Source: an uncultured Anaerolineaceae bacterium (GTDB lineage Bacteria; Chloroflexota; Anaerolineae; Aggregatilineales; Phototrophicaceae). Taken from it: DNA of 64,000 nucleotides. Numbering within the stretch: position 1 is the first letter of the stretch; each line of letters starts with the position of its first letter. The notes beneath the pieces are model-generated. The model was not told where the DNA came from, did not search any database, and was given only the letters and a program-made list of their open reading frames with translations. The position numbers and the translations under genes are program-made. Of this stretch, positions 10,201 through 41,470 are shown piece by piece. The DNA is taken from positions 2,603-66,602 of the forward strand of contig CAZDVL010000001.1 of NCBI GenBank assembly GCA_964508745.1, given 5' to 3'.

Positions 10201-13200
10201 GGACGCCCGGACGCACAGATCGTAGACCGCGCCCTTGAACGTGCGCGTCACGTAATCGTAAGCGCCCTCCAGCGTTGTGCCGATGGCGAAGCCGGTTCCT
10301 TTGAACGAGAACTCCAGGTCGTTGGCGGCGGCGGTGGAGGTGGACATGGCGATGCTGCTGGAGGCGCGCACGTCCGTGAGCTGCTGCCAGCTTCCCGCGA
10401 ACAACTGCCGCACCTCCGGCTCGTTCACGTCGTGGACGCCGGGCAGCAGCGGGTCAGATTCGAACAGGATGGAGAAGGCGTCCACGCGCAGCCAGCGGTA
10501 GAGCTGCCGGTTGATGATCTCAACCGTGTGCGCTTCGCCGTCGCGCAGGTCGCGGCAGGAAACGGTGTAGGGCGCGACGCCGTAGTTGGTCAGGCGGTCT
10601 TTGCCCTGGGTCACGTCACGCAGGAAGATGGCGCGCGTGGTGCAGGTAAAGCCCTCTGTCTGGACGCCGCTGGTCAGCGCGCGGCCCCGGCGCTCGCCGT
10701 TGGGCAGCGGCGGGTCCCACGTGAGGTCGCTGCCGTTGATGCGCAGGTCCCAGAAGCCGCCGACGGGGTATGCCTGCATGTAGAGCGTGAAGCCTTCGCC
10801 CACGAAGTTGAACGTGGCCACATCGTCCAGCGCCGTTGTGGTGTGCAGCGTGTTGTTGATGTTCGGCTCGCTGGCCGACGCCGTCCAACTGCCGGGCTTG
10901 GCCGGGTTGAGGTTGCCGTAGCTGAAGGCGAAGCTGGTGTCGTCGTGCAGACCGCGATCCGGGATGCTGCCGACAAGCTCCAGGCGCACCCGGCTGGTCA
11001 CTGTGCCGGGGCCGCCCGGCCCGGCGAACGAGTCGGTCGCCTGATACTCAAAGACCATGAAGCCGCGCTCGTTGGCCGCCGGCGTCAGCGTGATGATGCC
11101 GTCCGGCCCGGCGGCGGTGATGCGGCTCTCAATGTAGGCGGCGGGGTTAGCGCCCAGCAGGTTGGGGTTGTAATTCGGCTCAAACGTGACCTCGCGGCCC
11201 GCGGTGCTGTCGTTCGCCGGCCAGACGGTCACGCTGCCGTAGCTGAACGGGTAGTCCGCCTGAACGCCGCGCGCGGGCGTGCCGGTGTCGCTGCCGGCTT
11301 CGGAGAAGCTGAAGTTGTTGAACTGGACATAGGGGCGCAGCCGCAGCCGAAAGTCGGTCTCTGGCTCGGTGATGAGCCGGTAGGTGGTCCAGGGCGCGCC
11401 GCCTGCCGGCTGGGTGAGGCGTGTGTCCTGTGTCGGGGCGATGTTCACTGTGATCGTGTTCTGCACGGCCGCCCCGGAGGTGTCCCGCGCCTCGTAGGTG
11501 ATGACGACCTGCGCGGCGGGCGCGGTGTAGAAATGCCTTGGCGGGCAGTAGTAGATGTACTGTTTCAGGTCCGACGGAGCGGCCGGGTTCCGGCCCACCT
11601 TCAGGCCCTGGCCGCCGCAGAAATCGGTGGGGTCGGTGCTGAAGTTTTCCGGCAGGGGCGAGACGATGCTGAAGGTGTACGGCTCGAAGCCGCCCTCGAC
11701 GCCGCCGGCGCGCCCGTCGCGTGCGCGCGGGTCAATCAGGAACGCGCCGTTGACCGTGCCCACTGGCTGAACGTCGCCGGGCTGGCCGAAGGTGTCTTCC
11801 TGGCGCGCCTCGTTGGTGATCGGCGTGGCGTTGAGCAGAAGCAGCTCATAGGCGCCGATGTCCGGCACGCCGTTAAATACGCGCTGCCGGCCCCGGAAAT
11901 CCAGCGCCGACGTGAGCACGCTGCCATTGCCGCCGTCTGCGCCGGGGTTCGGGTTGGCGGCGGTGGGCTGGAGCAGTTGGTAATAGAGCGGGTCGGTGAT
12001 CGCCAGGCCCAGGCGCGGGCCGACGAACTTGGCCGTGTTCGGGTCGGCGGCAGGGTAGCCGGGGGCCGGGTTGACCGTCGTCACGTTGTTGTTGCCCGCC
12101 GTGCCCAGCGCCGGGCCACAGTCGCCGCCGGTGCCGGTGGCGGAAATCCAGTTGTTGGTCGCGCCGCTGTCCGGTACGCCGTTAGGCGAGCCATCCGGGA
12201 GGCTGGCCTGGCAGGCCGAGTCGGTTGTCGGGTCGTCGGCCAGGTTGGAGAAGTTGTTGCTAAAGAAGATGTTGTTGTGGATATCCCACTGGTTAGCGCC
12301 GGTCACTGCGCCGCCTGGGCGCCCGCGCACAAGCATCCCCAGAAAGCCGTTGGTGGTGTAAGCGGCGTCGAGCACGTGGCCGACGACCGTGTTGTGCGTG
12401 AAGCGGAAACTGGGGCCGGGGTCCAGGTGAACGAGCGGGCCTTTGGTGGCGTTGTTCAGCAGGATGTTGCTGAACATGTTGACGGTGCCCTGGGCCAGGC
12501 TGTCGTTAAGCACCTGCACCAGGCCTTCGCCGGAATTGCCGGTGAACAGGCTGCGCGCGATCGTGCCGCCGCTGCGGTCAAACGTGATCGCTGCGAACGT
12601 TGCCGGATCGGTCGCCTGAAGGCGCGTGGTATTCGCGCGGAAGGTGTTGTTTTCCAGCAGCGCGCCGCTGCTGTCTGTGAGTTTGATGGCGGATGTGCTG
12701 CTGCTGTCGCTGCCGTTGCCTTCAAACAGCGAGCCGGACACGGTGGCGCCGGCGCTGCTGTCTATTTCCAGCGGCACGGGCAGGTAATACATAAACGTGC
12801 TGCTGCGCAGCGTGCCGCCGGTGGCATAGGCGAAGGCGGCGGCGCGCACGGCCGGGAACAGATCGCCGGCGGTGCCGCCGCGCGGGCGCGTGCCGCGAAA
12901 CTGGAAGCCGCCGACCGTTGTGCCGGTGACGTTGTCGGTGAACACAAGGCCGGCGATGCCGCCGTAGCTGTTGTTGGTAATGATGGTGCTGGCGCCAGCG
13001 CCGGGCATCAGGTCGCTGTAGCTGACGATCTGGATGTTCTGCTTGTTGACCAGAATCGGCGTGACGTATTCGCCGGGCAGCAGCACCACGCGGTCGCCCG
13101 CGAGGGCGGCGGCGATGGCGTGCTGCGGGTGCAGGTAGGGCTGGCTGAAATTGTCGGGCGCGGGCGTCAGGCTGCCGGTCTGCGAGGACACGTACAGCGT

Positions 13201-16200
13201 CCTGCCGCCGAAGCCGTCGCTGAGGGCGGCGCCGGGCAGCGCGGGCCGGACATAATTGGGCTGGCCCAGCACCGGCAGGCCGGCGCCGTAGGTCTGGTCG
13301 AAGCCGTTGCCGTCGCGGTCAATGGCGTGGCCCTGCAAATAATTCTGGAGCGCATTTGCCGCGCCCACGCCGCTGTCGAAGGCGGCCATGTCGGCGTTGG
13401 TGTTGGCGACGAGCAGCGCGGCCATGCCGGCGATGTGCGCGGCGGCGGCGGACGTGCCGTTGAAGCCGTTGGGCGGTGACGGTTCCATGCTGCTGCCAGA
13501 TGCATCGGCGCAGGCGCTGAGGCCCTGGGCGGGGTCGGACGACGAGTCGCCATAAACTGCGATGTGCGACGGGCCGACCAGATTGGGCTTGAACACGTCC
13601 GCCGGGCCGGCGCCGCTGCTGCCGCCAGCGGCATACAGCGGCCCGCGCGAGCTGCTGGGCATAATGGGGTAGGGGTTGCTCTGGCCCTCACTGGCGCGGC
13701 CAGGCAGCGCCGAGCAGGCCGCGCCGACGGTCAGCGCGAAAGTCGAGTCGCCGGGGCGGCCCAGCGTGCGCGTGGTGTTGGCGCTCACGCCGGTCGGATA
13801 GGCGGTAATCGTGCCGCTGGTCTGGAACTGGAGATAGTCGCTGGCGGAGTCGCCGCCAAGCCTGGTAATGGTCGCCGTGAAAACGGTGGGGGCCGTGTAG
13901 CTGCCAGGGATCGTGACCTGCACGCCGGGGTTGGCCGTCAGCGGCACCCGGCTGGCGGCGGGCAGCGTGGCCGCGCCGTCCGTCAGCTCCAACTGGAAAT
14001 TCTCGCGAACAGCGCCGCCGTTCGGGGCGCTGTCCCAGTCGTTCCAGCTCAGCGAAACGGTGTCACCCGCCTGCGCCGTGACCGTGAACGCCATCGTTGG
14101 GCCGGCCCAGTCAAAGCTGGCGTAGCGGTCCAGGTTGTTGTTGCCGGCGCTGGCGATGACCAGCACGCCGGCCTCGCGCGCGGCGCGGATGGCGTCGTGC
14201 GGGGTGGCGGGGGCGGCGGCGCTGTAGCTGGTGTTGCCGTCGGTGCCGTCGCCGGGGCCGGCGCTCACGCCCAGGTCAAGCGTGATCAGGATGATGCGGT
14301 AGCCAGCCGCGCGCGCCGTGTTAATGGCGGCGGTGAGCTGGGCGGCCGTTGTGGCGGGGAAGGTCGCCACGCGGCTGGTGGGGGCGATGTCGCAGATGGT
14401 TTCGACCACACGCGCGCCGTGACTGATGGACGGCCCGACCGCCGCCGCGCTGATCAGGCAGGAACGTTCAGCGACGGGCAGCAGGTTCAGGCCGGTGAAA
14501 TTGGTGTCAATGACGGCGATGGGCACGCTGCCGCCGGTGACGGCGGCCCAGGCCGGCGCGCCGTTAATCACGGGCGGCGTGTGCCAGTCGTTGGCGCCCA
14601 GGATGTCGAGGCTGTGCGGCACGGTGGTGCCCGCGCCGGAGACCAGCACCGGCGCGCCGGCGCTGCTGGCCGCGCTGGATGTCGAGACGGCGCGGGGCGG
14701 CAGCACCACGGCCGCCACCTGCTCCGTGTTGACCAGCGCCTGAATGGCCGTCAGCGGCACGCGGGCCTCTACGGACTTGTCCCCGGTGAAATCGACGATG
14801 CCGCCGACCTGCTCGACCAGCGCGGCCAGCGCCGCCAGCTCAAGATCAGGGGCGGCGTAGACGACAACATTTACGCGCAGCGCGTCGTCGAGCGCGGGCA
14901 TGCCATAGTTTGTGGCCAGCGCGAGCGCGGCCTCTGTCTCGCCGCTCAGGTACAGCTCCAGTACCTCGTAGATGGCGCTGTGCAGTTTGGCGGCGTTGGC
15001 TTCGGTCAGGCCCAGCGGCGCGGGCGTGGCGGTGGGCAGCAGCTCAGCCGGGGTCAGGTCGTAGACGGCGATGTCGTCCAGCAGGGACGCGGCGGCGCCG
15101 CCCGCGCTGAACGCGAGCTGGCCGCTGATCAACGGCGTTTCATCGCTGAAGGTCAGCGCCTCGACGCCGTCCAGCAGCGCGCTGAACGTGCCGCCGGCGG
15201 CGTTCAGCGCCAGCGTGTGCCACGCGCCCGGCGCGAAGCTGGCCGGGACGGCGGCGAGCGGCGTCTGCTCACCGCCGGCGGCGGCGCGGTACAGCGCCAC
15301 CTGCGCGGCTTCCAGCCGCAGCACATACCCGCCGGCGTCGGCGCTGCGGAAGGCGATTTGCAGGCTGCTGCCGGCGTCAGCCAGGCTGAAGCGCGCGTTC
15401 AGGGTGAAATCCGCCAGGTGGACGATTTCCGCCGGCGCCAGCGCGCTGCCGGGGTTGAGCAGCAGCGCCCGGTTGTCGGCGGCGGTTTCGACGACGCTCG
15501 CGCCGTCAGTGACACTCCAGCCGGCCAGCTCGCCTTCAAAATCGGCGGCCAGGACCGGCGCCAGCGCGCCGGGTTCGTCGGTGCTTTCCGGCTCAACAGT
15601 CGCTTCTTCCGTCGCCTCCGGCTCGGTTATCGGCTCGTCGGTGGCTTCGGGCGCGGGTTCTTCGGTGGCCTCAGGCTCCGCCGTCAGCTCTGGCAGCGCC
15701 GTTTCGGTGGGGGCAGGCGCGGTTTCCGTCGCGGGTGGGATGGGCGTGGGCGTTTCGGTGGGCAGCTCCAGCCGGTGAATCACCACATCATCCAGCGCGA
15801 CCGCCGCGCTGCTGTCTGCGCCGGTGATGAACGCCAGCGCGCCGGCGGGCAGCGGCAGCGGGTCCTGGTAGGTGAACTGTACAACGCCGTCCAGGCCGAC
15901 GGTGAGCGTGTCGCCCAGCAGGTGCACGTTGAGCGTGCGCCAGACGGCCTGCGGCTGCTCGCCCTCAGCCAGCGGCGCGGGCTGCGGCCCCTGCGCCAGC
16001 AGCGCGCTGCCGCGATACAGGCTGGCCTGGCCGCTGGCGTCAAGCGTGACGGTGTACTGTTCAGCGCCGGCGCGCAGCGCCAGGCTCACGCTGGCGCCCG
16101 GCTCGACGCGCGCGCGCGCCGCCAGCAGCAGATGCTCCCAGTAGAGGTTGTTGACGGCCGCGCCCTGCGCTGGCCCGACGGCGCTCAGGACGCGGCTGGC

Positions 16201-16584
16201 GCCATCCAGCAGGACCTGCCAGCCAGCGGTGAGCGTCCAGCCGGCGGCGTCGCCGTCCTCAAAATTGTCCTGGAACAGCACCGCGTCGGGCGCCAGCGTC
16301 GCCAGCGGGGTGGGGCTGGCCGGCGGCGCGGCGGTCTCGGTGGCCTCCGGCGCGGCGGTTTCGACGGGCGGCGCGGTTGGCTCGGCGGTGGTTTCTGGCG
16401 CGGCGGTTTCGGCAGGCGGCGCGGTCGGGCTGGCCGTCTCCTCAGCCGGGGGCGGCGGCTCAGCGGTGGTTTCCTGCGCGCGCGCGACATAAGAGGCCGC
16501 TGGCGCGACATAGGTGACGATGAGCGAGATCAGAATAAGTCCGGTCAGAATGGCGTTGACGGCGCGCCGTTGTTCAGGGGTCAT
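4261..16584 (-). CDS. Giant (4107 aa) N-terminally anchored multidomain protein: DUF1080/LamG-like x2, S8 subtilase, beta-helix, Ig-like region, 14 two-Cys beta-rich modules
   Basis: This is a single open frame of 12,324 nt. GGAGG (16597-16593) sits 8 nt upstream of ATG 16584. The gene has its own promoter-like element and its own terminator. Recognisable domains and a catalytic triad occur only in this frame. Confidence 0.9.
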   Translation of the reverse strand: MTPEQRRAVNAILTGLILISLIVTYVAPAASYVARAQETTAEPPPPAEETASPTAPPAETAAPETTAEPTAPPVETAAPEATETAAPPASPTPLATLAPDAVLFQDNFEDGDAAGWTLTAGWQVLLDGASRVLSAVGPAQGAAVNNLYWEHLLLAARARVEPGASVSLALRAGAEQYTVTLDASGQASLYRGSALLAQGPQPAPLAEGEQPQAVWRTLNVHLLGDTLTVGLDGVVQFTYQDPLPLPAGALAFITGADSSAAVALDDVVIHRLELPTETPTPIPPATETAPAPTETALPELTAEPEATEEPAPEATDEPITEPEATEEATVEPESTDEPGALAPVLAADFEGELAGWSVTDGASVVETAADNRALLLNPGSALAPAEIVHLADFTLNARFSLADAGSSLQIAFRSADAGGYVLRLEAAQVALYRAAAGGEQTPLAAVPASFAPGAWHTLALNAAGGTFSALLDGVEALTFSDETPLISGQLAFSAGGAAASLLDDIAVYDLTPAELLPTATPAPLGLTEANAAKLHSAIYEVLELYLSGETEAALALATNYGMPALDDALRVNVVVYAAPDLELAALAALVEQVGGIVDFTGDKSVEARVPLTAIQALVNTEQVAAVVLPPRAVSTSSAASSAGAPVLVSGAGTTVPHSLDILGANDWHTPPVINGAPAWAAVTGGSVPIAVIDTNFTGLNLLPVAERSCLISAAAVGPSISHGARVVETICDIAPTSRVATFPATTAAQLTAAINTARAAGYRIILITLDLGVSAGPGDGTDGNTSYSAAAPATPHDAIRAAREAGVLVIASAGNNNLDRYASFDWAGPTMAFTVTAQAGDTVSLSWNDWDSAPNGGAVRENFQLELTDGAATLPAASRVPLTANPGVQVTIPGSYTAPTVFTATITRLGGDSASDYLQFQTSGTITAYPTGVSANTTRTLGRPGDSTFALTVGAACSALPGRASEGQSNPYPIMPSSSRGPLYAAGGSSGAGPADVFKPNLVGPSHIAVYGDSSSDPAQGLSACADASGSSMEPSPPNGFNGTSAAAAHIAGMAALLVANTNADMAAFDSGVGAANALQNYLQGHAIDRDGNGFDQTYGAGLPVLGQPNYVRPALPGAALSDGFGGRTLYVSSQTGSLTPAPDNFSQPYLHPQHAIAAALAGDRVVLLPGEYVTPILVNKQNIQIVSYSDLMPGAGASTIITNNSYGGIAGLVFTDNVTGTTVGGFQFRGTRPRGGTAGDLFPAVRAAAFAYATGGTLRSSTFMYYLPVPLEIDSSAGATVSGSLFEGNGSDSSSTSAIKLTDSSGALLENNTFRANTTRLQATDPATFAAITFDRSGGTIARSLFTGNSGEGLVQVLNDSLAQGTVNMFSNILLNNATKGPLVHLDPGPSFRFTHNTVVGHVLDAAYTTNGFLGMLVRGRPGGAVTGANQWDIHNNIFFSNNFSNLADDPTTDSACQASLPDGSPNGVPDSGATNNWISATGTGGDCGPALGTAGNNNVTTVNPAPGYPAADPNTAKFVGPRLGLAITDPLYYQLLQPTAANPNPGADGGNGSVLTSALDFRGRQRVFNGVPDIGAYELLLLNATPITNEARQEDTFGQPGDVQPVGTVNGAFLIDPRARDGRAGGVEGGFEPYTFSIVSPLPENFSTDPTDFCGGQGLKVGRNPAAPSDLKQYIYYCPPRHFYTAPAAQVVITYEARDTSGAAVQNTITVNIAPTQDTRLTQPAGGAPWTTYRLITEPETDFRLRLRPYVQFNNFSFSEAGSDTGTPARGVQADYPFSYGSVTVWPANDSTAGREVTFEPNYNPNLLGANPAAYIESRITAAGPDGIITLTPAANERGFMVFEYQATDSFAGPGGPGTVTSRVRLELVGSIPDRGLHDDTSFAFSYGNLNPAKPGSWTASASEPNINNTLHTTTALDDVATFNFVGEGFTLYMQAYPVGGFWDLRINGSDLTWDPPLPNGERRGRALTSGVQTEGFTCTTRAIFLRDVTQGKDRLTNYGVAPYTVSCRDLRDGEAHTVEIINRQLYRWLRVDAFSILFESDPLLPGVHDVNEPEVRQLFAGSWQQLTDVRASSSIAMSTSTAAANDLEFSFKGTGFAIGTTLEGAYDYVTRTFKGAVYDLCVRASSSAANAWVCQEFRNGDGAVYLPTFGAFRPFYGFANGLNDVHEARLIIKEIPTGARLVVDSITVFDQQPTATLPTGVTENDIIGPIVFGNGRDDSWTFNTVDARASNRSLHTVAWGIINAGPFVSFQLPATADRFEWSRVAIPTIDTQQALICVDRASGGPAGVQSDYCVLHNLRTAPNPLVIRESDFAAGWVAAGAHTVEIFSLVNSPFNFDKVTVFDSSLPLAAGYYEEFSLLPSSPTSAYRYNGVWTDLKWPLAGYASGLAARQTTEAGANVIFEMNGTGFAAYFTTDYLAGSAEICWLAGLDHTESAVRSTGTCRTYNNYLPYTLYKAPRTVIGLSAAPADFTVVISNVPNSPAQTTMKFDALEIFNHTLPTLRLDQPGQRYETSFKQFTADPTTTPFYYFGTGWSTVEGPWVTYSGKNYDMSLYRQGAGFAFRTSGVDLVRIVRPAVYGWATMEICASGVDFDAAVPGQNCLQVLGQQNPVLVRLPDTSERIVTVTLVNASVLFLDAVDVYNTGSPLPVGQHEDDNPLLQFDSRWSPLASGLYTAIHGMRTTVDNADMLFYMNGAYVEIGAFLSPYNQLDICSKDGQFDRADYAANPGTWACETWPPASTISYARQLYGRAFPSMGVRSVLVRHNAYNPPYASAVIDYVTIYNSLDPLVEGTYEETHPKLRAGLMLANNTPQGTIPVWTAATPNWATLPSPVFSGGSLVQTSTAGDYLVFDFNGTGFEIGSTTDIYGSELEVCYASGTISANFGGAAFDPALFDAAGPRCYIYQNETAAPNYTTARTVNALTAGSYTVRARHLDTNGSAVYPTLPARTWNIPRLRVDYVSIYNSPLPPAVASGSFNDSATDGGSPYLQVAPASRWRQITDWRALTYANQSFTGITDNFGNVTNRYVGPVATLRVSVTDPGATVILDTGNPSYLNSDQLLVCVDQVAGDGTVTTDNGTCRVLTTMRTMRYQTLQIGHSGPGADYRLTFRTLTPGFFNIAGFQVIPGSTLTAGVHEEFLMTGTGIKTYNSPAFSLFTVANNANSEDWKTITLAPYTGGRALSTEFRKDTPPPASPATPNIGGSLSFSFTGTGISIGTLLDRWGSEMRVCYQMAGWPAEVCETFQNEYVGVSYYTSRTIAGLERGTYTVRIENSDDGESVVVPTLPRNTQIFPARLVIDYVQVIDAGAALPPLVPPGVYNDTAAASDSRPYLQTAPANRWSTFSGAAAYAYTGQSYTAVVNDLRQYSPLYGGAAAALHVTVPAVGSTTVTLNTGYQSAANSRELQACYRRTDAPNTQFACELVTPGMWTSRQQNVTLTNGVNVTAPGNYLIVFRTLTPGLFLVDGFEVRTINTLVLGAGLYENTQMSANPGAPLQLTGAWTTLNSPVYSGGSVAQTELPSAQTTGGGSLEFTFEGTGFAVSTVVDIFGSEMRVCYAPDASFDGTWDGTGEYCYDYQNEIPAPNYYTLRTVGGLAPGVYRAYVANLNDGRSELTKHIPGFARYPFYPARLRVDYVQVFNTALPPVVPPGSYNDDAAGSAPYLQFTPSNRWARVTGAPAYYYYNQSYRGIGDPLGRISPLYPGSALTLQVQVPAQSAGGLTTIVLDTGNPTYSNSAQILACAYDATTGARDKCEVITTAQASRFQVFSLTNSGGAPVNRTVTFSTLTTGLFNVAGFQVIAGRTLTEGVYDDYLFNAADGSLIQQTGAWQQGFAVPISKHPWAVGGGQQRTQDPNAALKFEFEGTGFSIGTMQWLYGLDFQVCYEPWTGSAWGAPTCQNGSNDSLGALHFQYGQSYYGLPYGRYRVEVKLKPAAQQSDGAISVWEWLYVDAIAIMGDVATVDNGAGGRAPNAPLTPGMYDDAELLTSAAASFGPAGTWGAPPYVYYGPPYGPWNKTEQFTIRAGSTLSLYIRGNGLTLYQQFNYANSSDVRVCLAESGSEMQCSNFSQYGPYKYFSPIAFYGLGQNQNHHIILENRTPGLRFNVDAIQVIP
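4264..8226 (-). repeat. Four tandem copies of an A-B di-module (about 1 kb of DNA each): 7204-8226, 6178-7203, 5191-6177, and 4264-5190 (diverged)
   Basis: The anchors ..RLRVDYVSIYN (N2965), ..RLVIDYVQVID (D3304) and ..RLRVDYVQVFN (N3637) give periods of 339 and 333 aa. The A modules share GGSLxFxFxGTGxxxxTxxDxxGSEMRVCY. The B modules share LPPxVxxGxxND...PYLQxxPxxRW...LDTGNPxYxNSxQxLxC...FxTLTxGxFNxAGFQVI. Confidence 0.85.
4264..10971 (-). repeat. Array of 14 consecutive beta-rich modules of about 145-180 aa (aa 1872-4107), each with exactly one Cys pair
   Basis: Every module ends with a h-h-h-D-x-h-x-h strand: RVDAFSILF, VVDSITVFD, FDKVTVFD, FDALEIFN, LDAVDVYN, IDYVTIYN, VDYVSIYN, IAGFQVIP, IDYVQVID, VDGFEVRT, VDYVQVFN, VAGFQVIA, VDAIAIMG, VDAIQVIP. 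Many modules carry x-F-x-F-x-G-T-G-F. Each has two Cys 10-27 residues apart. Confidence 0.8.
10972..11844 (-). other. Two probable Ig-like / putative-Ig (He_PIG-like) domains (about aa 1581-1871)
   Basis: The sequences are GGFEPYTFSIVSPLPENFSTDP...VVITYEARDTSGAAVQNTITVNIAP and ...ERGFMVFEYQATDSFAGPGGPGTVTSRVRLELV. These are beta-sandwich style patterns and the call is weak. Confidence 0.35.
11845..13182 (-). other. Right-handed parallel beta-helix region (about aa 1135-1580)
   Basis: There are repeated N/G/T-rich turns (ITNNSYGGIAGLVFTDNVTGTTVGG..., LENNTFRANT..., SLFTGNSGEG..., IHNNIFFSNNF...). The region ends in FRGRQRVFNGVPDIGAYEL, the DIGAYE-type end I associate with pectate-lyase-like / choice-of-anchor beta-helix proteins. 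Confidence 0.6.
13225..14622 (-). other. Subtilisin-like (peptidase S8) domain (about aa 655-1120) with a large insertion
   Basis: The candidate triad is Asp693 (IAVIDTNF, codon 14508-14506), His722 (ISHGARVVE, 14421-14419) and Ser1045 (FNGTSAAAAHIAGMAALL, 13452-13450). It is preceded by a prodomain-like segment (aa about 526-630). Confidence 0.75.
15055..15555 (-). other. DUF1080/LamG-like domain 2 (aa 344-510)
   Basis: The sequence is LAADFEGELAGWSVTDGASVV...HTLALNAAGGTFSALLDGVEALTFSD...GQLAFSAGG...LLDDIAVYDL. It is a paralog of domain 1, separated from it by an E/P/T/A linker. Confidence 0.55.
15769..16287 (-). other. DUF1080/LamG-like (concanavalin-like) domain 1 of the giant protein (aa 100-272)
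   Basis: The sequence is LFQDNFEDGDAAGWTLTAGWQVLLDG...LDGVVQFTYQD...GALAFITG...ALDDVVIHRL, the typical F-x-D-x-F...W...W-x-V pattern of this fold. The assignment is by eye. Confidence 0.55.
16318..16434 (-). repeat. Imperfect tandem 48-nt repeat (2 full copies plus a partial one) encoding the T-A-P-P-x-E-T-A-A-P-E linker
   Basis: Units 16339-16386 and 16387-16434 align with only a few mismatches (ggtgg....ggcgcggcggtttcg...ggcggcgcggt...). The protein reads ..TAPPAETAAPETTAEPTAPPVETAAPEATETAAPP.. Confidence 0.7.
16495..16560 (-). other. N-terminal hydrophobic signal-anchor / signal peptide of the giant protein (aa 9-30)
   Basis: The sequence is MTPEQRRAVNAILTGLILISLIVTYVAPAASYVARAQE: a positively charged N-terminus, then about 22 hydrophobic residues, then an A-x-A-like site. 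Confidence 0.7.
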
Positions 16585-30581: not shown

Positions 30582-31522
30582 TATTCCTGGCGCGCCTTTC
30601 CCACGACATCGAGGAAGATGTCTTCCAGCGTCATCGCGACCGGGCGCAGCTCCAGCAGGCGGCAGCCGGCCTGTGCCGCCGCCTGGGCGACATCGGCGCG
30701 GGCGTCAGCGCCGGGCTGGATGCGCAGCGTGTAGCCTTCGCCCTGCGGCTGGACCAACTCGACGCCGGGCACGCCCGCCAGCAGGTCGCGCGCCCGCACG
30801 CCTGGCGCGCATGTGATGGCGACGTACAGGTGCGCGCCGGGCTGAAGCTGCTGGCGCAGCGTGGCGGGCGCGCCCTGGGCGACGATGCGGCCCTGGTGAA
30901 TAATCAGCACGCGGTCGCAGATCTGCTCCGCTTCGGACAGGATGTGTGTGCTGAACAGCACCGTGTGGTCGGCGCCAAGCTGGCGCACAAGCTGGCGCAC
31001 CTCGATCACCTGCTGCGGGTCAATGCCGATTGTTGGCTCGTCAAGGATGATGACTGCTGGGTTGTGCACCAGGGCCTGCGCCAGCCCCAGGCGCTGCCGC
31101 ATGCCTTTCGACAGGTGGCGGATCAGGCTGTCGCGGCGGTCGGCAAGCTGAACGCGCTCCAGCACGCTTTCTACCTGGGCGCGGGGGCGGCGCACGCCGC
31201 GCATCTCAGCCCAGAAGGTGACGTAGCCGCGCACGGTCATGTCGGGGTAAACGGGCACGCGCTCCGGCAGGTAGCCAACGCGCCGCCGGACTTCGAGCGA
31301 GTCGGCGCTAACATCGAAACCGGCGATGGTCGCTGTGCCGCTGGTGGGAAGCATGAAGCCGGTGAGCATGCGGATGGTGGTGGTTTTGCCGGCGCCATTT
31401 GGCCCCAGCAGGCCGACAACCTCGCCGGGGCTGGCGGCGAACGAGAGGTCCTCAACGGCCGGGTACAGGCCGTAACGTTTGGTCAGGTTGTGCGCTTCGA
31501 TCATGATCGGGTCACGCTCCAT
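30581..31522 (-). CDS. ABC transporter ATP-binding protein (GldA-like)
   Basis: Motifs are Walker A GPNGAGKTT, signature LSKGMRQRL and Walker B VIILDEPTIGID. Confidence 0.9.
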   Translation of the reverse strand: MERDPIMIEAHNLTKRYGLYPAVEDLSFAASPGEVVGLLGPNGAGKTTTIRMLTGFMLPTSGTATIAGFDVSADSLEVRRRVGYLPERVPVYPDMTVRGYVTFWAEMRGVRRPRAQVESVLERVQLADRRDSLIRHLSKGMRQRLGLAQALVHNPAVIILDEPTIGIDPQQVIEVRQLVRQLGADHTVLFSTHILSEAEQICDRVLIIHQGRIVAQGAPATLRQQLQPGAHLYVAITCAPGVRARDLLAGVPGVELVQPQGEGYTLRIQPGADARADVAQAAAQAGCRLLELRPVAMTLEDIFLDVVGKARQE

Positions 31523-31693
31523 GTGCGCACCTGCATCCTACCGCCGGGGGGCAGGTGCGTCAAGTAAACGTAAACGATTCTGGACAAGGGTCAGGCGGGC
31601 GGCGGCCGCCCGCGCCAGGGCCGCGATTTTCAGGGCCGGGTTAGACAGACTGCACAAACGCCGCGCAAAAGTGTACAAGATTTCCGCCGCTGA

Positions 31694-31722
31694 TTGACAC
31701 AGCGCTGTGAACGCTTTACACT
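31694..31722 (+). promoter_or_regulatory. Promoter of the arg operon leader: TTGACA-17 nt-TACACT
   Basis: A perfect -35 lies at 31694-31699, the spacer is exactly 17 nt, and a 4/6 -10 lies at 31717-31722. The element is about 230 nt upstream of the argC ATG. Confidence 0.6.
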
Positions 31723-31757
31723 ACCTGCCATTAAGGTGCGGGGTGTACCTGATTGAG

Positions 31758-31865
31758 ATGTCGAACAGTTCTACAGCGGTAAGGATGCCGCGTCGCAGCC
31801 GTCGTCGCCCACAGACCAGTGAGGTCGAGGTGGGCGTTTTGTGCTGGCAGGCCGCGACGGCATAA
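31758..31865 (+). CDS. Candidate Arg-codon-rich leader peptide (35 aa, or 26 aa from ATG 31785)
   Basis: The translation is MSNSSTAVRMPRRSRRRPQTSEVEVGVLCWQAATA*. Codons 31791-31808 read CGT CGC AGC CGT CGT CGC, so 5 of 6 are Arg. The Shine-Dalgarno context is weak for both ATGs. Confidence 0.45.
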   Translation: MSNSSTAVRMPRRSRRRPQTSEVEVGVLCWQAATA

Positions 31866-31891
31866 CACACGAAACGCAGCGAACGAGCGAA

Positions 31892-31926
31892 CCCCTGATC
31901 TCACGCCAAGCGGTCAGGGGTTTTTT
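31892..31926 (+). terminator. Intrinsic terminator (putative attenuator) immediately upstream of argC
   Basis: A 9-bp stem pairs CCCCUGAUC (31892-31900) with GGUCAGGGG (31912-31920), including one G-U. The loop is 11 nt and is followed by UUUUUU (31921-31926). The argC SD AGGAAAGGGGA starts 7 nt later (31933). Confidence 0.7.
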
Positions 31927-31950
31927 GTGGACAGGAAAGGGGACGAAGCG

Positions 31951-32949
31951 ATGCAGCCAGTGCGCGTGGGGGTGTTTGGCGCGGCCGGTTACGCCGGCCT
32001 TGATCTGGTTGAGATTCTGGCGGGCCACCGCCAGGTTGACCTTGTTTTTGCCACGTCAGGCACGTTTGCCGGCCGGCCGGTCCCTGGCACGGCGCTGCGT
32101 TACACCGCCGCTGACGCCGCCGACCTGACGGCGGTTGACGCGGTGTTTCTGGCGCTGCCGCACAGGGTGTCGGCGCCGGTGGCCGCGCGCGCGCTGGCGC
32201 ACGGCGCAAGGGTGATTGACCTGTCGGCGGACCTGCGCCTGAACACGCCAGAGGACTACCAGCGCTGGTACGGCGTGGTGCACCCTAACCCGGAGCTGCT
32301 GCCGGTTCCCTACGGCCTGCCGGAGATCAACCGCGAGCGGCTGCGCGGCGCGAACCTGGTCGCCGCGCCCGGCTGCTACCCGACGACGACGCTGCTGGGC
32401 CTGTTCCCGCTGCTGAAGGCGGGCGCGCTGGAGCCTGAAGCGCCGGTGATCGTGGACGCGAAATCGGGCGTGTCTGGCGCCGGGCGAGAGCCAAAGCCCA
32501 ACACACACTTTGTCGAGGTGTTCGGCAACTTCTCGCCATATAATCCGGGCCGCGCTCACCGGCACGTGGGCGAGATCGAACAGGAGATGGCCCGGCTCGG
32601 CAGGGCGGGCACGCTGATTTTCACGCCGCACCTGCTGCCGGTGGATCGCGGCCTGATGGCGAGCATCTACGTGACGCTGGACGGCGCTTTCTCCAGCGAA
32701 CAGGCGCAGGCGCTCTATGAGGAAGCCTACTGTGACGAGCCGCTGGTGAGCGTGCTGCCGCTGGGGCAGCAGGCCACGCTGCGGCACGTGGTGCGCACCA
32801 ACCGCGCCGCCATCAGCCTGACGCCGGTCACGCCGCGCTACCTGCACATTACCAGTGTGACCGACAACCTGCGCAAAGGTGCGTCGGGGCAGGCGGTGCA
32901 GTGTTTTAACCTGATGTTCGGCCTCGCTGAAACGGAAGGCCTGCTGTGA
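31951..32949 (+). CDS. argC: N-acetyl-gamma-glutamyl-phosphate reductase
   Basis: The protein starts MQPVRVGVFGAAGYAGLDLVEIL and has the active-site motif AAPGCYPTTT. I set the start at ATG 31951, after the SD and the terminator; the track's 31819 start is an in-frame upstream extension. Confidence 0.9.
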   Translation: MQPVRVGVFGAAGYAGLDLVEILAGHRQVDLVFATSGTFAGRPVPGTALRYTAADAADLTAVDAVFLALPHRVSAPVAARALAHGARVIDLSADLRLNTPEDYQRWYGVVHPNPELLPVPYGLPEINRERLRGANLVAAPGCYPTTTLLGLFPLLKAGALEPEAPVIVDAKSGVSGAGREPKPNTHFVEVFGNFSPYNPGRAHRHVGEIEQEMARLGRAGTLIFTPHLLPVDRGLMASIYVTLDGAFSSEQAQALYEEAYCDEPLVSVLPLGQQATLRHVVRTNRAAISLTPVTPRYLHITSVTDNLRKGASGQAVQCFNLMFGLAETEGLL

Positions 32950-33743
32950 CCGGCGCGGCGGCGCTGCCGGTAGTTGTCAAGGTGGGCGGCAACGAGATTG
33001 ACGACGCCGGGTTCCTGGCGGGGCTGGCGCCCGCGCTGGGCGCGCTGGGCGCGCCGGCGGTGGTGGTGCACGGCGGCGGCAAAGAGATTTCGGCGCTGCA
33101 GCAGGCGCTGGGGATTGAGCCGCGCTACCTCGACGGCGTCCGCGTGACCGACGCCGCGTCGCTGGCGGCGGTCGAAATGGTGCTGTGCGGCGCGGTGAAC
33201 ACGCGCGTCGTGCGCCATCTGCTGGCGGGTGGGTTGGACGCGCTGGGCGTCAGCGGCGTGGACCGGGGGCTTATCCGCGCGGAGAAAATGCCGCATCCGC
33301 ACACTGACATGGGCTTCACCGGGATGGTCACAGCGGTGCGCGCGGAGGTCCTGCGCGGCTGGCTGGCCGAGGGCGTGACGCCGGTGATCGCGCCGATCTG
33401 CCTGGGGCCGGACAGCGCCTACAATGTCAACGCCGACCACGCCGCCGGGGCGGTGGCGGCGGCGCTGGGCGCGGCCAGAGTCGTGTTTCTGACGAATGTT
33501 GAAGGGGTTATGATTGACGGAAACGTGATCGGTGCGCTGGATGCGGCGCGCGCGCGCGCGTTGATCGCCGACGGCACGATTTTCGGCGGGATGATTCCCA
33601 AAGTTCAGACCGCGCTGCACGTCCTGGAAATGGGCGTGCCGCAGGCGGTGATCACCAACCTGGCAGGTTTGCAGCGGCACAGCGGCACTGTCTTCACCCG
33701 CGCCGCACACACGACCGGAGAAAGCACCGATGAGCACCACTGA
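32946..33743 (+). CDS. argB: Acetylglutamate kinase
   Basis: Motifs are VVKVGGNEI, VVVHGGGKEI, YNVNADHAAGAVAAAL and GGMIPKV. Its start overlaps the argC stop by 4 nt. Confidence 0.85.
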   Translation: MTGAAALPVVVKVGGNEIDDAGFLAGLAPALGALGAPAVVVHGGGKEISALQQALGIEPRYLDGVRVTDAASLAAVEMVLCGAVNTRVVRHLLAGGLDALGVSGVDRGLIRAEKMPHPHTDMGFTGMVTAVRAEVLRGWLAEGVTPVIAPICLGPDSAYNVNADHAAGAVAAALGAARVVFLTNVEGVMIDGNVIGALDAARARALIADGTIFGGMIPKVQTALHVLEMGVPQAVITNLAGLQRHSGTVFTRAAHTTGESTDEHH

Positions 33744-34935
33744 GCGCACCGCGCAGCTATTGGACCTCGAACAGCATTACCTGATGCAGACCTACCGCCG
33801 CCCGCCGTTCGTGCTGACGCGCGGCGAGGGCGTACACCTGTACGACACGGAGGGGCGCGCGTATCTCGACTTTGTCGCCGGCATCGCCGTTAACGCGCTG
33901 GGGTACGGCGACCCGGCCCTGACGCGCGCCGTCCAGCAGGCCGCCGGCCAGCTTATCCATGTGAGCAACCTGTACAACACAGCGCCGCAGGCTGAGCTGG
34001 CCGCCATGCTGGTGGAAAAGTCGTTTGCGGACCGGGTGTTTTTCTGCAACAGCGGCGCGGAGGCCAACGAAGGGGCGATTAAGTTCGCGCGCAAGCTGGC
34101 CTACGACGCCGGCGAGCCGGACAAGACCGAGATCGTGTGCTTCAGCGGCGCGTTTCACGGGCGGACAATCGCGACGGTTTCCCTGACGCCGAAGGAAAAG
34201 TACCAGAAGCCGTTCGCGCCGCTGCTGCCGGGCGTGGTCGTCGCGCCGTTCAACGACGCTGAGGCGGCGGCGCGGGCTATCAGCGACCGCACAGCGGCGG
34301 TCATTGTCGAGCCGGTGCAGGGCGAGGGCGGCATCAACCCGGCGACGCCCGCTTTCCTGGGGGCGCTGCGCGCGCTGTGCGACCGGCACAGCGCCGCCCT
34401 GATCTTTGACGAGATTCAGTGCGGCATGGGGCGCACCGGCACGCTGTGGGCGCACGAGGCCAGCGGCGTCGCGCCAGACATTATGACGATCGCCAAGCCG
34501 CTGGCGGGCGGGCTGCCGGTGGGCGCGATTCTGGTCACGCAGGCGGTGGCCGACCATCTGCACCCCGGCGACCACGGCTCGACTTTCGGCGGCGGCCCGC
34601 TGGTGACGAGCGCGGCGCAGGTGGTGCTGGCGCGGGTCAGCCAGCCCGAATTTCTGGCGCACGTGGCCGAAACCGGCAGCTATCTGCAGGAGCGCCTGGC
34701 GGAGATCAACAGCCCGCTGATTGTGGACGTGCGCGGGCGCGGCCTGATGGTGGGCCTGGAGCTTGCCGTTGATGTCGCGCCGCTGGTGGCCGAGGGCTAC
34801 CAGCGCGGCCTGCTGCTGGTCAACGCCGGCGAGAAGGTGCTGCGCTTTATCCCGCCGCTGGTCATCGAGAAGCAGCACGTGGACACCCTCGTCGGCCACC
34901 TGACGGCGATGTTAGAGGGCCTCGCTCATGGTTAA
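33730..34935 (+). CDS. argD: Acetylornithine aminotransferase (class III PLP)
   Basis: Motifs are FCNSGAEANEGAIKFAR, IFDEIQCGMGRTG and DIMTIAKPLAGG (PLP lysine). It overlaps argB by 14 nt. Confidence 0.9.
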   Translation: MSTTERTAQLLDLEQHYLMQTYRRPPFVLTRGEGVHLYDTEGRAYLDFVAGIAVNALGYGDPALTRAVQQAAGQLIHVSNLYNTAPQAELAAMLVEKSFADRVFFCNSGAEANEGAIKFARKLAYDAGEPDKTEIVCFSGAFHGRTIATVSLTPKEKYQKPFAPLLPGVVVAPFNDAEAAARAISDRTAAVIVEPVQGEGGINPATPAFLGALRALCDRHSAALIFDEIQCGMGRTGTLWAHEASGVAPDIMTIAKPLAGGLPVGAILVTQAVADHLHPGDHGSTFGGGPLVTSAAQVVLARVSQPEFLAHVAETGSYLQERLAEINSPLIVDVRGRGLMVGLELAVDVAPLVAEGYQRGLLLVNAGEKVLRFIPPLVIEKQHVDTLVGHLTAMLEGLAHG

Positions 34936-36136
34936 CGTCGCGCCCTCGATTGAGTCCGTCAGCGGTTTTAAAGCGTCCGGCGTGCACTGCGGCCTGAAGA
35001 AGGACGGCCGGCCCGACCTGGCGCTGATCGTCAGCGACGCGCCGTGCGCGGGCGCTGGCGTGTTCACGACCAACCGGCTGAAATCCGCACCGGTGCTGCT
35101 GAGCGCCGAGCGGCTGCGCGAGAGCGCCGCCGCGGTGCGCGCGGTGATTATCAACACCGGCAGCGCCAACGCCTGCACCGGTGACCAGGGCCTGGACAAC
35201 GCGCGGGCGACGGCGCGTTACACCGCGCAGCGGCTCGGCTGTGCTGAGGATCAGGTGCTGGTGCTTTCCACCGGCGTGATCGGCACGCAGCTTCCGATGG
35301 ATAAAATTCGCGCCGGGGCGGATGCCGCCGCCGCCGCGCCTGGCGATTGGGCGGAAGCGGCGCGGGCCATTATGACGACCGACACGCGCCCGAAACTGGC
35401 GTCGGTCACGGTGCGCGACGCGGGGGGCAGCTATCAGATCGCGGGCATCACCAAAGGCGCGGGGATGATCGCGCCGAACATGGCGACGATGCTCGGTGTG
35501 ATCGTCACCGATGCGGCGCTCACGCCGGCGCAGGCGCAGGCGGCGCTGGCTGCCGCCGCCGACGCCAGCTACAACCGGATTGTTGTGGACGGCGACATGA
35601 GTCCGAACGACACGGTGCTGCTGCTGGCGAACGGGGCCAGCGGCGTGACGCCGGCGCTGGACACGTTCGGGCAGGCGCTGACGGCGCTGTGCACCTACCT
35701 GGCGCAGGCCATTGTGCGCGACGGCGAGGGCGTGACCAAGTTCATCGCGCTGGCGGTGAACGGCGCGGCGGACGACGACTCCGCGCGGCAGATCGCCACC
35801 ACAATCGCGACTTCGGCGCTGGTCAAGACGGCGTTCTACGGCGGCGACGCCAACTGGGGGCGCATCGTTGCGGCGGCGGGGCGGGCGGGCGTTCCCTTTG
35901 ACCCGGCGCGCGCCAGCCTGACGATGGCGTCTGGCGCGGGGGACAGCAGAGAGTCGGTGCTGTTGTTCCGCGCGGGCGTGCCGCTGGCGTACAGCGAGGC
36001 GCTGGCGACGGCGATCATCAGCGCTGCCGAGGTGGATGTCACGCTGGACTGCGGCCTGGGCAGCGGCGCGGCGCTCATCTGGACCTGTGACCTGAGCCAC
36101 GAGTACGTGACCATCAACGGCAAGTATCGCACGTAG
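34928..36136 (+). CDS. argJ: Bifunctional ornithine acetyltransferase / N-acetylglutamate synthase
   Basis: Motifs are [21 protein letters not shown] and the self-cleavage region [18 protein letters not shown]. It overlaps argD by 8 nt. Confidence 0.9.
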
Positions 36137-36144
36137 CGAGGGGG

Positions 36145-37266
36145 ATGATGCGCGGCGCAATCGCATTGGAAGATGGGCGCGTTTTCACGGGGACCGGCTT
36201 CGGCGTCCAGGGCATCCGGGCGGGTGAGGCGGTGTTCAACACCTCCATGACCGGCTATCAGGAAATCCTGACCGACCCATCGTACTTCGGCCAGATCGTG
36301 ACGATGACCGTCCCGCACGTGGGCAACACTGGTGTCAACCTGGAGGATGTTGAATCGGACCGCGCGTGGGTGTCCGGCTTTGTGGTGCGGGCGCTCAGCC
36401 CGGTGGTGAGCAGTTGGCGCGAGCGCGGCACGCTGGACGATTACCTCAAGGCGCAGGGCGTGATCGGCCTGACGGATGTGGCGACGCGCGCGCTGGTGCG
36501 GCACATCCGCACGCGGGGCGCGATGCGCGCCGTGATCGCGCACGGCGCGGCCGCGGAGGACACGGCGGCGCTGGTAGAGCTGGCGCGGCGGTCGCCGGAC
36601 GCGGCCGGGGCCAACCTGGTGGACGACGTGACGTGCGACGAGCCGTATAACTGGACCGAGCGCAGCGACCCGCAGTGGTATCGCAGCCATCACTACGACC
36701 CGGCCGGGCCGCTGGTCGTGGCTTACGACTTTGGCATCAAGCGCAACATCCTGCGGCTGCTGACCGACCGGGGGCTGCGCGTGGTCGTCGTTCCGGCGCA
36801 CACGCCCGCCGCTGAGGTGCTGGCGATGAATCCTGATGGCGTGTTTCTCAGCAACGGGCCGGGCGACCCGGCGGCGGTCACTTACGCGATCGAAAACGTG
36901 CGCGCGCTGCTGGGCCGCACGCCGCTGTTTGGCGTCTGCCTGGGGCATCAGATTATCGGGCTGGCGCTGGGCGGGAAAACCGAGAAGATGCGCTTCGGCC
37001 ACCGCGGCGGCAACCAGCCGGTCAAGAACCTGCTCACCGGCGTGGTCGAGATCAGCAGCCACAATCACGGCTTCGCGGTGCTGCCCGACAGCGACCTGGG
37101 CGGCGCGCAGATCACGCATGTGAACCTGAACGACAACACGGTCGAAGGGCTGCGCCATGAGGGCTTAGGCGTCTTCAGCGTGCAGTACCACCCGGAGGCC
37201 GCGCCCGGCCCGCACGACTCGCTCTACCTGTTTGATGCGTTTGTCGGGCGCGTGCACAACACATGA
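36145..37266 (+). CDS. carA: Carbamoyl-phosphate synthase small (glutaminase) subunit
   Basis: Motifs are [21 protein letters not shown] and the GATase triad region LFGVCLGHQ...HNHGF. Confidence 0.95.
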
Positions 37267-37307
37267 CATTTGCGGATAGCGACTGAGGCAGGAACTGGTG
37301 AGGCTGT

Positions 37308-40510
<3,203 letters not shown>

Positions 40511-40511
<1 letters not shown>

Positions 40512-41470
40512 TGTTCTCGGCGCGTTTAACCGCGATTTTGCAGGCGCTGCTGGTCACGCTGATCTGGTCGGCGTCGTGGGTGCTGATCAAGATGGGGCTG
40601 GCGGACATTCCGCCGGTTACGTTCGCCGGGCTGCGCTATTTTGTCGCCTTTCTGTGCCTGGCGGCGCTGGCGGCGCGCTCAGCGCAGAGCCGCGCCGCCG
40701 TCAGGCGGCTGACGCGGCGGCAGTGGGGGCTGCTGCTGGCGCTGGGCTTCACGTTCTACACGCTGACGCAGGGCACGCAGTTTGTGGCGCTCACGTCGCT
40801 GCCGGCGGTCACGCTCAGCCTGCTGCTGAACTTCACGCCGGTCATCGTGCTGGGCCTGGGCGCTGCGCTGCTGCACGAGCGCCCCTCGCGGCGCCAGCTC
40901 ATGGGCATTGGCCTGTTCCTGTTGGGCGCGCTGATCTACTTCTGGCCGGTGTCGTTCCCGACGCGAGAAGTTTTCGGGCTGGTCGTCGGGCTGGTGGGCG
41001 TGTTCGCCAACGGCTTCAGCAGCGTGCTGGGGCGCTACGTCAACCGCGACGGGGCGATTGCGCCGCTGGTAGTGACGACGATCAGCATGGGCAGCGGGTC
41101 GGCGCTGCTGCTGGGGGGCGGCCTGCTGGTTGAGGGGCTGCCGGCGCTGAGCCTGCCGGCCTGGGCGCTGATTGTCTGGCTGGCGGTGGTGCACACCGCG
41201 CTGGCGTTCACGCTGTGGAACGCCACGCTGCGCACGTTAAGCGCGGTGGAGTCCAGCGTGATTAACAACACGATGCTGGTGCAGATCGCGCTGCTGGCGT
41301 GGCTGTTCCTGGGCGAAACGATCACGGCGCAGGGCGCGCTGGGCCTGCTGCTGGCGGCGGTTGGCATACTGGTCGTGCAGGTGGCGGGTCGGGTGGGGGT
41401 GAGCCGCGCTGTCCGGCCGGTTGAGACGGCGGGCACGGCGCGCGAAACGGACGCTCAGCCCCCGTCGTGA
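40511..41470 (+). CDS. DMT-superfamily (EamA-type) transporter
   Basis: It has ten predicted hydrophobic helices in two EamA-like halves. ATG 40511 overlaps the carB TGA (TGATG). Confidence 0.8.

Follow-up and report, generated by a model that had tools for sequence, protein, structure and literature searches.

Arginine is the standard example of an amino acid whose biosynthetic pathway is controlled by a repressor (ArgR/AhrC). Among bacterial leader systems, a survey from 2005 described attenuators for histidine, threonine and phenylalanine and T-boxes for arginine (PMC1262725), and a survey from 2010, which contributed a histidine leader in the Firmicutes, noted that Proteobacteria and Actinobacteria had until then been the only sources of known leader peptides (PMC2965389). 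Here we describe an arginine-codon leader upstream of argC in a 64,000-nucleotide (nt) stretch of DNA, hereafter the window, from an uncultured Anaerolineaceae bacterium of the phylum Chloroflexota (contig CAZDVL010000001.1); coordinates are those of the window and features lie on the + strand unless stated otherwise. Judged from its sequence and from folding models, the element is very probably a ribosome-mediated leader-peptide transcription attenuator, responsive to charged tRNA-Arg, that would control argC-argB-argD-argJ-carA-carB. Arginine synthesis is most likely under this form of control because the leader is conserved across dozens of Anaerolineae genomes. An initial annotation of the window had proposed a promoter, a short open reading frame (sORF) with a run of arginine codons, a terminator hairpin and two further competing pairings at this locus, and all of these were present at the positions given below.

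The element occupies a 428-nt intergenic gap, with a divergent ATP-binding cassette (ABC) transporter operon on one side and argC on the other. A consensus scan placed a sigma-70-type promoter at 31694-31722, consisting of a -35 box TTGACA (31694-31699), a 17-nt spacer and a -10 box TACACT (31717-31722). The promoter scored 10/12, with 0.1 such sites expected in shuffled sequence, and the predicted transcription start lies at approximately 31729-31731, about 7 nt past the TACACT box. Between this promoter and the argC ATG at 31951 sits the sORF, which encodes MSNSSTAVRMPRRSRRRPQTSEVEVGVLCWQAATA and extends from ATG 31758 to the TAA stop at 31863-31865 (31758-31865), with a second in-frame ATG at 31785. 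Its arginine run reads CGU CGC AGC CGU CGU CGC (31791-31808), giving five arginine codons in six.

Four pairing regions follow from the end of this run. Region 1 (CGCCCAC-A-GACC, 31806-31817) starts at the last arginine codon and forms the 5' arm of the anti-antiterminator; region 2 (UGAGGUCG-AG-GUGGGCG, 31820-31836) is able to partner either region 1 or region 3; region 3 (CCCCUGAUCUCA, 31892-31903) serves both as the 5' arm of the terminator and, in the antiterminator, as the strand that pairs with region 2; and region 4 (GGUCAGGGG with a U6 tract, 31912-31926) completes the intrinsic terminator. In the 1:2 hairpin CGCCCAC (31806-31812) pairs with GUGGGCG (31830-31836), lengthened by GACC (31814-31817) with GGUC (31823-31826), for a folding energy of -18.8 kcal/mol. 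The 2:3 helix joins GAGGUCG (31821-31827) to UGAUCUC (31896-31902) and is lengthened by the pair U31820-A31903 and a GGG:CCC stack; this antiterminator (31820-31827 with 31896-31903, plus GGG:CCC) is mutually exclusive with the terminator. The latter pairs CCCCUGAUC (31892-31900) with GGUCAGGGG (31912-31920) in nine GC-rich base pairs (bp), followed by T6 (31921-31926), at -17.6 kcal/mol, leaving 24 nt between the T run and the argC ATG. It was missed by a built-in terminator scan, which allows loops of up to 8 nt, as the loop here is 11 nt. Both the centroid and the minimum-energy folds contain an inner hairpin (31835-31876), in which CGUUUUGUG (31835-31843) pairs with CACGAAACG (31868-31876) beneath a GCCG-CGA-CGGC cap.

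To place the element among related genomes, an ArgC scan of species-representative genomes provided 66 Anaerolineae/Aggregatilineales (Chloroflexota) loci together with 14 gammaproteobacterial outgroups. Forty-three leaders were aligned (alignment A1) and a covariance model, R1, was built from them. R1 gave exactly one match in the window, at 31785-31926 (94.9 bits, E 2e-20). It matched 56 of the 65 Anaerolineae argC loci having upstream DNA, always on the argC strand and just upstream of argC; the element was absent from the other nine of the 65, and R1 matched none of the 14 gammaproteobacterial argC loci. No credible second copy was found by R1 elsewhere in the window or in the ~7-kb loci, where the weak minus-strand matches were terminator palindromes. 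A gene-independent pattern scan of metagenome DNA returned 26 loci, all 26 with the motif, and argC followed in 24 of the 24 that had enough downstream DNA (in one of these after an intervening ORF of 478 amino acids), a context result that is biased because the pattern recovers only 27 of the ~57 known members.

The conserved upstream order is a TTGACA/T-17-TAnnnT promoter, the sORF, a CCCCCUGACCUC…GAGG(U)CAGGGGG hairpin and a U tract, with the promoter lying 43-75 nt upstream of the arginine run in nearly all homologous loci. The sORF and its arginine run were conserved in ~50 species-level genomes and in metagenomes, and across the same set the comparison that the initial annotation had proposed, of the run, the stop position and compensatory stem changes, came out in favour of the attenuator. 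Two more genomic contexts, one of them on a 6.2-Mb contig, share the synteny of the window, which runs from a sigma-70 gene through a DUF4340 gene and the ABC operon to the divergently oriented leader and argCBDJ-carA(B).

The alternative helices are well preserved among these sequences. Over 73 distinct sequences the 1:2, 2:3 and 3:4 helices were 95-96% paired, with some compensatory changes. RNAalifold on alignment A1 returned the antiterminator as the consensus structure (UGAGGUCA with UGACCUCA, plus GGG:CCC). This pairing had initially been described as short; it is instead a conserved helix of 8+3 bp, lengthened by the inner hairpin. The 2:3 helix was paired at 96.3% in A1 and at 95.5% in A3, an 80-sequence model alignment that was not fitted to 2:3. 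Neither the pairing nor the covariation score was matched in any of 500 shuffles, and at most 56% was reached when the register was slid. Compensated changes convert GAGGUC/GACCUC to CAGGUC/GACCUG in one relative (L058) and to AAGGUC/GACCUU in another (L025). The 1:2 helix and the terminator core (3:4) were jointly 95% paired, with seven pairs changed on both sides. For the terminator stem pairing stood at 93.5%, 12 cells showed two-sided compensation, and the mean folding energy in the 43 relatives was -21.6 kcal/mol.

The inner hairpin reads UUUUGCG:CGCAAA in relatives, with compensated variants UUUUGUG:CACGAAA in the window and UUUAAG:CUUAAA in L002. Its support is moderate (mean z -0.83), and with moderate confidence we place it in the folding model as the predicted top of the antiterminator domain. 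The U-rich 5' arm of this hairpin lies immediately 3' of the 1:2 hairpin and its U run is conserved. It is possible that the 1:2 hairpin and the U run together act as a pause site for RNA polymerase, which would synchronise ribosome and polymerase.

Within the window the duplex of regions 1 and 2 has an energy of -20.4 kcal/mol, that of regions 2 and 3 -19.8 kcal/mol and the terminator -17.6 kcal/mol, so the 1:2 and 2:3 structures are nearly isoenergetic. In classical systems such as trp the competing helices are likewise nearly isoenergetic. Ribosome positions were modelled by masking, using a transcript truncated before region 4, as folds of the full-length leader could not separate the states. 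With no ribosome, 1:2 formed in 8 of its 11 pairs and 2:3 in none. A ribosome with its A-site on the first or second arginine codon left 1:2 at 10/11 and gave no 2:3. With the A-site on arginine codons 3-5 (31800-31808), 1:2 fell to 0/11 and 2:3 rose to 7/8. A ribosome at the stop codon returned 1:2 to 11/11 and 2:3 to 0/8, and the terminator arm stayed free both in this state and with no ribosome. When region 1 was masked in the relatives, the antiterminator formed in 37 of 43. The 1:2 / 2:3 / 3:4 logic of leader-peptide attenuation put forward in the initial annotation is therefore supported by the conserved, mutually exclusive helices and by the ribosome-mask folds. In the comparison of unconstrained and masked folds, which it had suggested, the truncated transcript switches from 1:2 to 2:3, and the full-length leader always adopts the terminator.

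These observations are consistent with the following scheme. A ribosome would translate the leader of ~35 codons and meet five arginine codons in six at about its middle. If arginine were scarce, Arg-tRNA(Arg) would become limiting and the ribosome would stall on the last three arginine codons (31800-31808), its footprint covering region 1 (CGCCCAC-A-GACC) and freeing region 2 (UGAGGUCG..GUGGG). Region 2 could then pair with region 3 (CCCCUGAUCUCA) once that is transcribed, trapping the 5' arm of the terminator and allowing readthrough into argC. If arginine were plentiful, the ribosome would move on toward the stop codon, and either 1:2 would re-pair behind it or the ribosome itself would cover the 3' part of region 2; in both cases 3:4 would form and transcription would be expected to end at the U6 tract, releasing a leader RNA of ~200 nt. 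Should the leader go untranslated, 1:2 and 3:4 would form, making termination the default.

Several points weigh against this scheme. Whichever positions are masked, the full-length leader always folds into the terminator at equilibrium; only a kinetic switch would therefore work, and the model requires ribosome and RNA polymerase to be kinetically coupled, which we presume to be the case here. Behind a stop-codon footprint mask, 30 of the 43 relatives keep the 8-bp 2:3 helix in their minimum-energy fold, and the branch of the model for plentiful arginine consequently depends on 1:2 re-forming first. Covariation is genuine but modest as evidence, since the high conservation of the element leaves most pairs either invariant or changed on a single side. 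Translation initiation is a further point. Shine-Dalgarno motifs before the leader starts are weak or absent in about two-thirds of the loci and the true start in the window is uncertain. The initial annotation had rightly cautioned that both ATGs of the window are poorly served in this respect; an alternative start is possible at GTG 31743, which follows AAGGUG (31733-31738) and has a better Shine-Dalgarno sequence than either ATG. One locus, L046 (2841-2949), keeps regions 1-4 and the stop codon in a leader (MPDRFALRLNGCPGVPHPITIEVIWGLLR) from which the arginine run has been lost, and may represent a family member that is decaying or has been re-purposed. Finally, L001, the closest relative (ArgC 87% identical), is without the promoter and the sORF.

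At L001, positions 2790-3025 retain the sequence from the 3' arm of the inner hairpin through the terminator and the Shine-Dalgarno sequence to argC; in place of the promoter, the sORF and regions 1-2 there is the 3'-terminal part of a permease gene of the ABC type that lies on the same strand. A strong terminator thus stands directly before argC, with no visible bypass. This arrangement may be a real rearrangement or a mis-assembly of the metagenome-assembled genome (MAG).

Could the conserved RNA be read by something other than a ribosome? A riboswitch-like or protein-binding attenuator, sensing arginine, another metabolite or a regulatory protein, would make the sORF and its arginine codons incidental. 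The weak Shine-Dalgarno motifs and the retention of structure without an arginine run in L046 would fit such a device, as would the pattern of conservation 3' of the run, where column entropy shows no codon periodicity and the variable columns fall in loops and the conserved columns in helices. Because this conservation lacks codon periodicity and follows the helices, the sORF segment 3' of the run appears to be constrained as RNA and not as peptide. The arginine run itself behaves differently, and it is here that the riboswitch-like explanation fares badly. Leaders of relatives carry four to seven arginine codons in seven to nine, and the run is kept in frame. Its column entropies at codon positions 1/2/3 are 0.50/0.26/0.81, and variation at third positions is almost only C/T and therefore synonymous. 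Each of 52 loci has a start codon in frame between the promoter and the run, as a rule an ATG located 25-42 nt past the -10 box. Among relatives the N-terminal part of the sORF, before the run, differs freely in both sequence and length, as expected of a leader ORF, and the divergent short variants retain the arginine run only. The structures are simple alternative hairpins and lack a conserved pocket built of several helices. There is no Rfam match either: when the complete Rfam 15 set of 4227 models was run over 31400-32100 with cmscan at E up to 10, three chance-level matches (E 3.6-4.9) and no leader or T-box family came up. Taken together we regard a metabolite or protein sensor as very unlikely.

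The run would not carry this argument by itself. The six frames of the GC-rich window contain 113 runs of at least five arginine codons in six, so that the run is not above chance when taken alone, and we rejected it as stand-alone evidence. Its significance comes from its conservation and from its position relative to the alternative helices.

A second explanation keeps the ribosome and changes what it senses. In an arrest-peptide mechanism, like those of the fungal arginine attenuator peptide, TnaC and SpeFL, free arginine would be detected in the exit tunnel and the ribosome held at or near the stop codon while the terminator forms. The conserved form of the sORF, M-(variable)-RRR(R)SRRPQTxEVxLGFLR (also …RRRRSRRPQTxEVxLGFLR) before the stop, gives this idea some appeal, since PQTxEVxLGFLR and the stop position, 36-42 nt past the run, are conserved in most members; in the window fold a ribosome at the stop codon also gives regulation of the right sign. 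However, conservation of the C-terminal segment extends to every codon position and follows helices, not amino acids. Short variants ending in RRRRRIPRG, RRRRKHAN or RRRSRRLP have lost the C-terminal peptide yet keep the arginine run and the terminator. Moreover, five to seven cognate codons abutting region 1 are a hallmark of tRNA-charging sensing. Seven leader peptides compared with NCBIfam and Pfam gave no meaningful match at E up to 10 and no arrest-peptide family. We therefore consider an arrest peptide improbable.

Least credible of all is a hairpin and U tract that act constitutively, as an insulator, leaky terminator or RNA-stability element, with control of the operon coming from another source such as an ArgR-type repressor: L001 does have a terminator without a leader, but to follow a strong conserved promoter with an unregulated terminator, ahead of an essential biosynthetic operon, would be wasteful and would leave the conserved mutually exclusive 1:2/2:3 helices and the arginine run unexplained, and no ARG box was found near the promoter. 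On this last point the initial annotation, which had seen no ARG-box-like palindrome, was correct; no match to the ARG box (TNTGAATWWWWATTCANW) with up to three mismatches was found near 31523-31950, the pattern being the E. coli consensus, so that a divergent operator is possible, and the sole match in the whole window under the same settings is at 54674.

Returning to the ribosome-mediated attenuator, we infer from the sequence patterns above that the sORF is translated. A leader-peptide homologue search with a peptide profile, for which the GTG-extended peptide was the query, identified homologous sORFs of 28-65 amino acids with ATG starts in 35 database clusters, where they had been called independently by gene finders; the named homologues are all annotated 'hypothetical protein'. 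Just before the arginine run, many members (for example P0001 and P0005) carry a weakly conserved motif, (E)QLN(S/N)P (…GAACAACUGAAUAGCCCG…), which is not found in the window and could be a feature of either the RNA or the peptide.

The choice of codons within the run is strongly biased. Across the 52 loci, 279 of 286 leader arginine codons (97.6%) are CGU or CGC, 149 of them CGU. Arginine codons in the adjacent argC genes are CGC (405), CGG (147) and CGU (121), so that CGU and CGC together make up ~70%. In the operon of the window CGU accounts for 3 of 166 arginine codons, against three of five in its leader. CGU and CGC are decoded by one tRNA, with anticodon ICG. It may be that the sensor reads this single isoacceptor, tRNA-Arg(ICG), through its CGU/CGC codons. 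An alternative reason for the bias is RNA pairing by the run itself: pairing of the run with the segment after the stop codon would extend the 1:2 stem, a possibility with moderate support (mean z -0.77). CGG, which makes up 20-25% of genic arginine codons, is nearly absent from the leaders, and the AGC serine codon that interrupts the run is strongly conserved.

Downstream of the leader, the predicted regulated operon extends over 31951-41470 and comprises argC (31951-32949), argB (32946-33743), argD (33730-34935), argJ (34928-36136), carA (36145-37266), carB (37308-40511) and a gene for an EamA/DMT transporter (40508-41470). The first six were identified by NCBIfam equivalog matches above the curated cut-offs, in agreement with the gene order argC-argB-argD-argJ-carA-carB of the initial annotation. 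The last encodes a protein resembling EamA/DMT-family carboxylate/amino-acid transporters, its match to the 2A78 family being below the cut-off (74.3 bits against 230.2), and the first 4 nt of the gene overlap the carB stop codon. The attenuated operon thus seems to include it as a seventh gene, whose product might export or import amino acids. At L107 the EamA/DMT gene is absent from this position and other small genes follow carA. Two other loci (L108:10004-10609 and L109:7057-7662) have an ORF of 201 amino acids, without a Pfam match, inserted between argB and argD, and at L101 (2111-3547) an ORF of 478 amino acids lies between the arginine leader/terminator and argC, where it would fall under arginine control.

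Three Anaerolineaceae loci without the arginine leader (L017, L021 and L026) share a different conserved sequence, AAAATCCGYCTTGTTTTTTTAGYC…GGGTAGTTCAATTAGGCGGC, ~120 nt before argC; this sequence may likewise have a regulatory role. In the window the divergent intergenic region also contains a perfect 9+9 palindrome, GCGGGCGGC-G-GCCGCCCGC (31595-31613), ~80 nt upstream of the -35 box, and a 9-bp inverted repeat, CGCACCTGC/GCAGGTGCG (31526-31559), lies within the 5' untranslated region of the divergent ABC operon. Elsewhere in the window, 4261-16584 on the minus strand encodes a giant ORF of 4107 amino acids with subtilase S8, LamG-like (concanavalin) and right-handed beta-helix domains.

A conserved arginine-codon attenuator would add arginine to the amino acids with known leader-peptide attenuators. 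The initial annotation knew of no established arginine-codon leader family, and Rfam, NCBIfam and Pfam indeed yielded no match; a bacterial arginine leader/terminator attenuator was found neither in Rfam 15, NCBIfam and Pfam nor in the literature searched. Both for arginine biosynthesis and for the Chloroflexota, we tentatively suggest, this may be the first leader-peptide attenuator family to be described; in this clade it could replace ArgR-type repression. The mechanism would thereby be extended to a phylum in which it implies that ribosomes follow RNA polymerase closely enough for attenuation. If true, tight transcription-translation coupling, with a hairpin-plus-U-run pause, would operate in a deep-branching phylum; to our knowledge such coupling has never been examined in Chloroflexota. 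Model R1 is ready for the annotation of the MAG-dominated Anaerolineae genomes, and the contrast between CGU as a rare codon in the genes of the window and as half of all sensor codons provides a testable case of isoacceptor-specific sensing.

How does this leader compare with other systems that respond to arginine? The fungal arginine attenuator peptide (the arg-2/CPA1 upstream open reading frame, uORF) precedes an arginine-pathway gene for carbamoyl-phosphate synthetase and mediates negative control by arginine, as proposed here. It differs in being eukaryotic and dependent on the peptide sequence, with free arginine stalling the ribosome at the uORF stop, no counting of codons and no terminator. 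In the Salmonella speF leader, slowing of the ribosome at consecutive arginine codons of a short leader ORF, orf34, likewise refolds the downstream mRNA, but orf34 has two arginine codons, its target speF serves polyamine and not arginine synthesis, and its outputs are Rho-dependent termination, occlusion of the ribosome-binding site and RNase G decay, with no switch between an intrinsic terminator and an antiterminator (PMC6386406). The short leader ORF rbfL of S. aureus also senses arginine limitation through arginine codons of one tRNA isoacceptor; these are, however, the rare codons AGA/AGG, control is translational through occlusion of the rbf ribosome-binding site, and the target, a biofilm regulator, is repressed under starvation (PMC13009471). 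Known control of arginine at the RNA level is by the arginine T-boxes of the Firmicutes (named in PMC1262725). They share with our element the sensing of tRNA-Arg charging and a terminator/antiterminator switch upstream of arginine-related genes, but act independently of translation, by direct binding of uncharged tRNA, and the window is without an Rfam T-box match.

The closest likeness is to the classical attenuators of enterobacteria (trpL, hisL, leuL, thrL, pheL and ilvL/ivbL), for which Rfam has His, Leu, Thr, Trp and Phe leader families. As in these systems, a promoter-proximal sORF has a tandem series of codons for the amino acid that its pathway supplies, and the same four-region logic applies, with 1:2 as anti-antiterminator, 2:3 as antiterminator and 3:4 as intrinsic terminator. 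They are alike also in the similar stability of 1:2 and 2:3, in a terminator favoured at equilibrium and in termination as the default without translation. The mechanism is a textbook one and not new; the amino acid and the phylum are new, making the advance incremental and not conceptual. What sets the present leader apart from its enterobacterial counterparts is that the amino acid is arginine and the host a member of the Chloroflexota (class Anaerolineae), that it has no sequence similarity to the Rfam leader families, that its regulatory codons are almost exclusively CGU/CGC, and that its antiterminator is a long-range domain in which a closing helix of 8+3 bp surrounds an inner hairpin.

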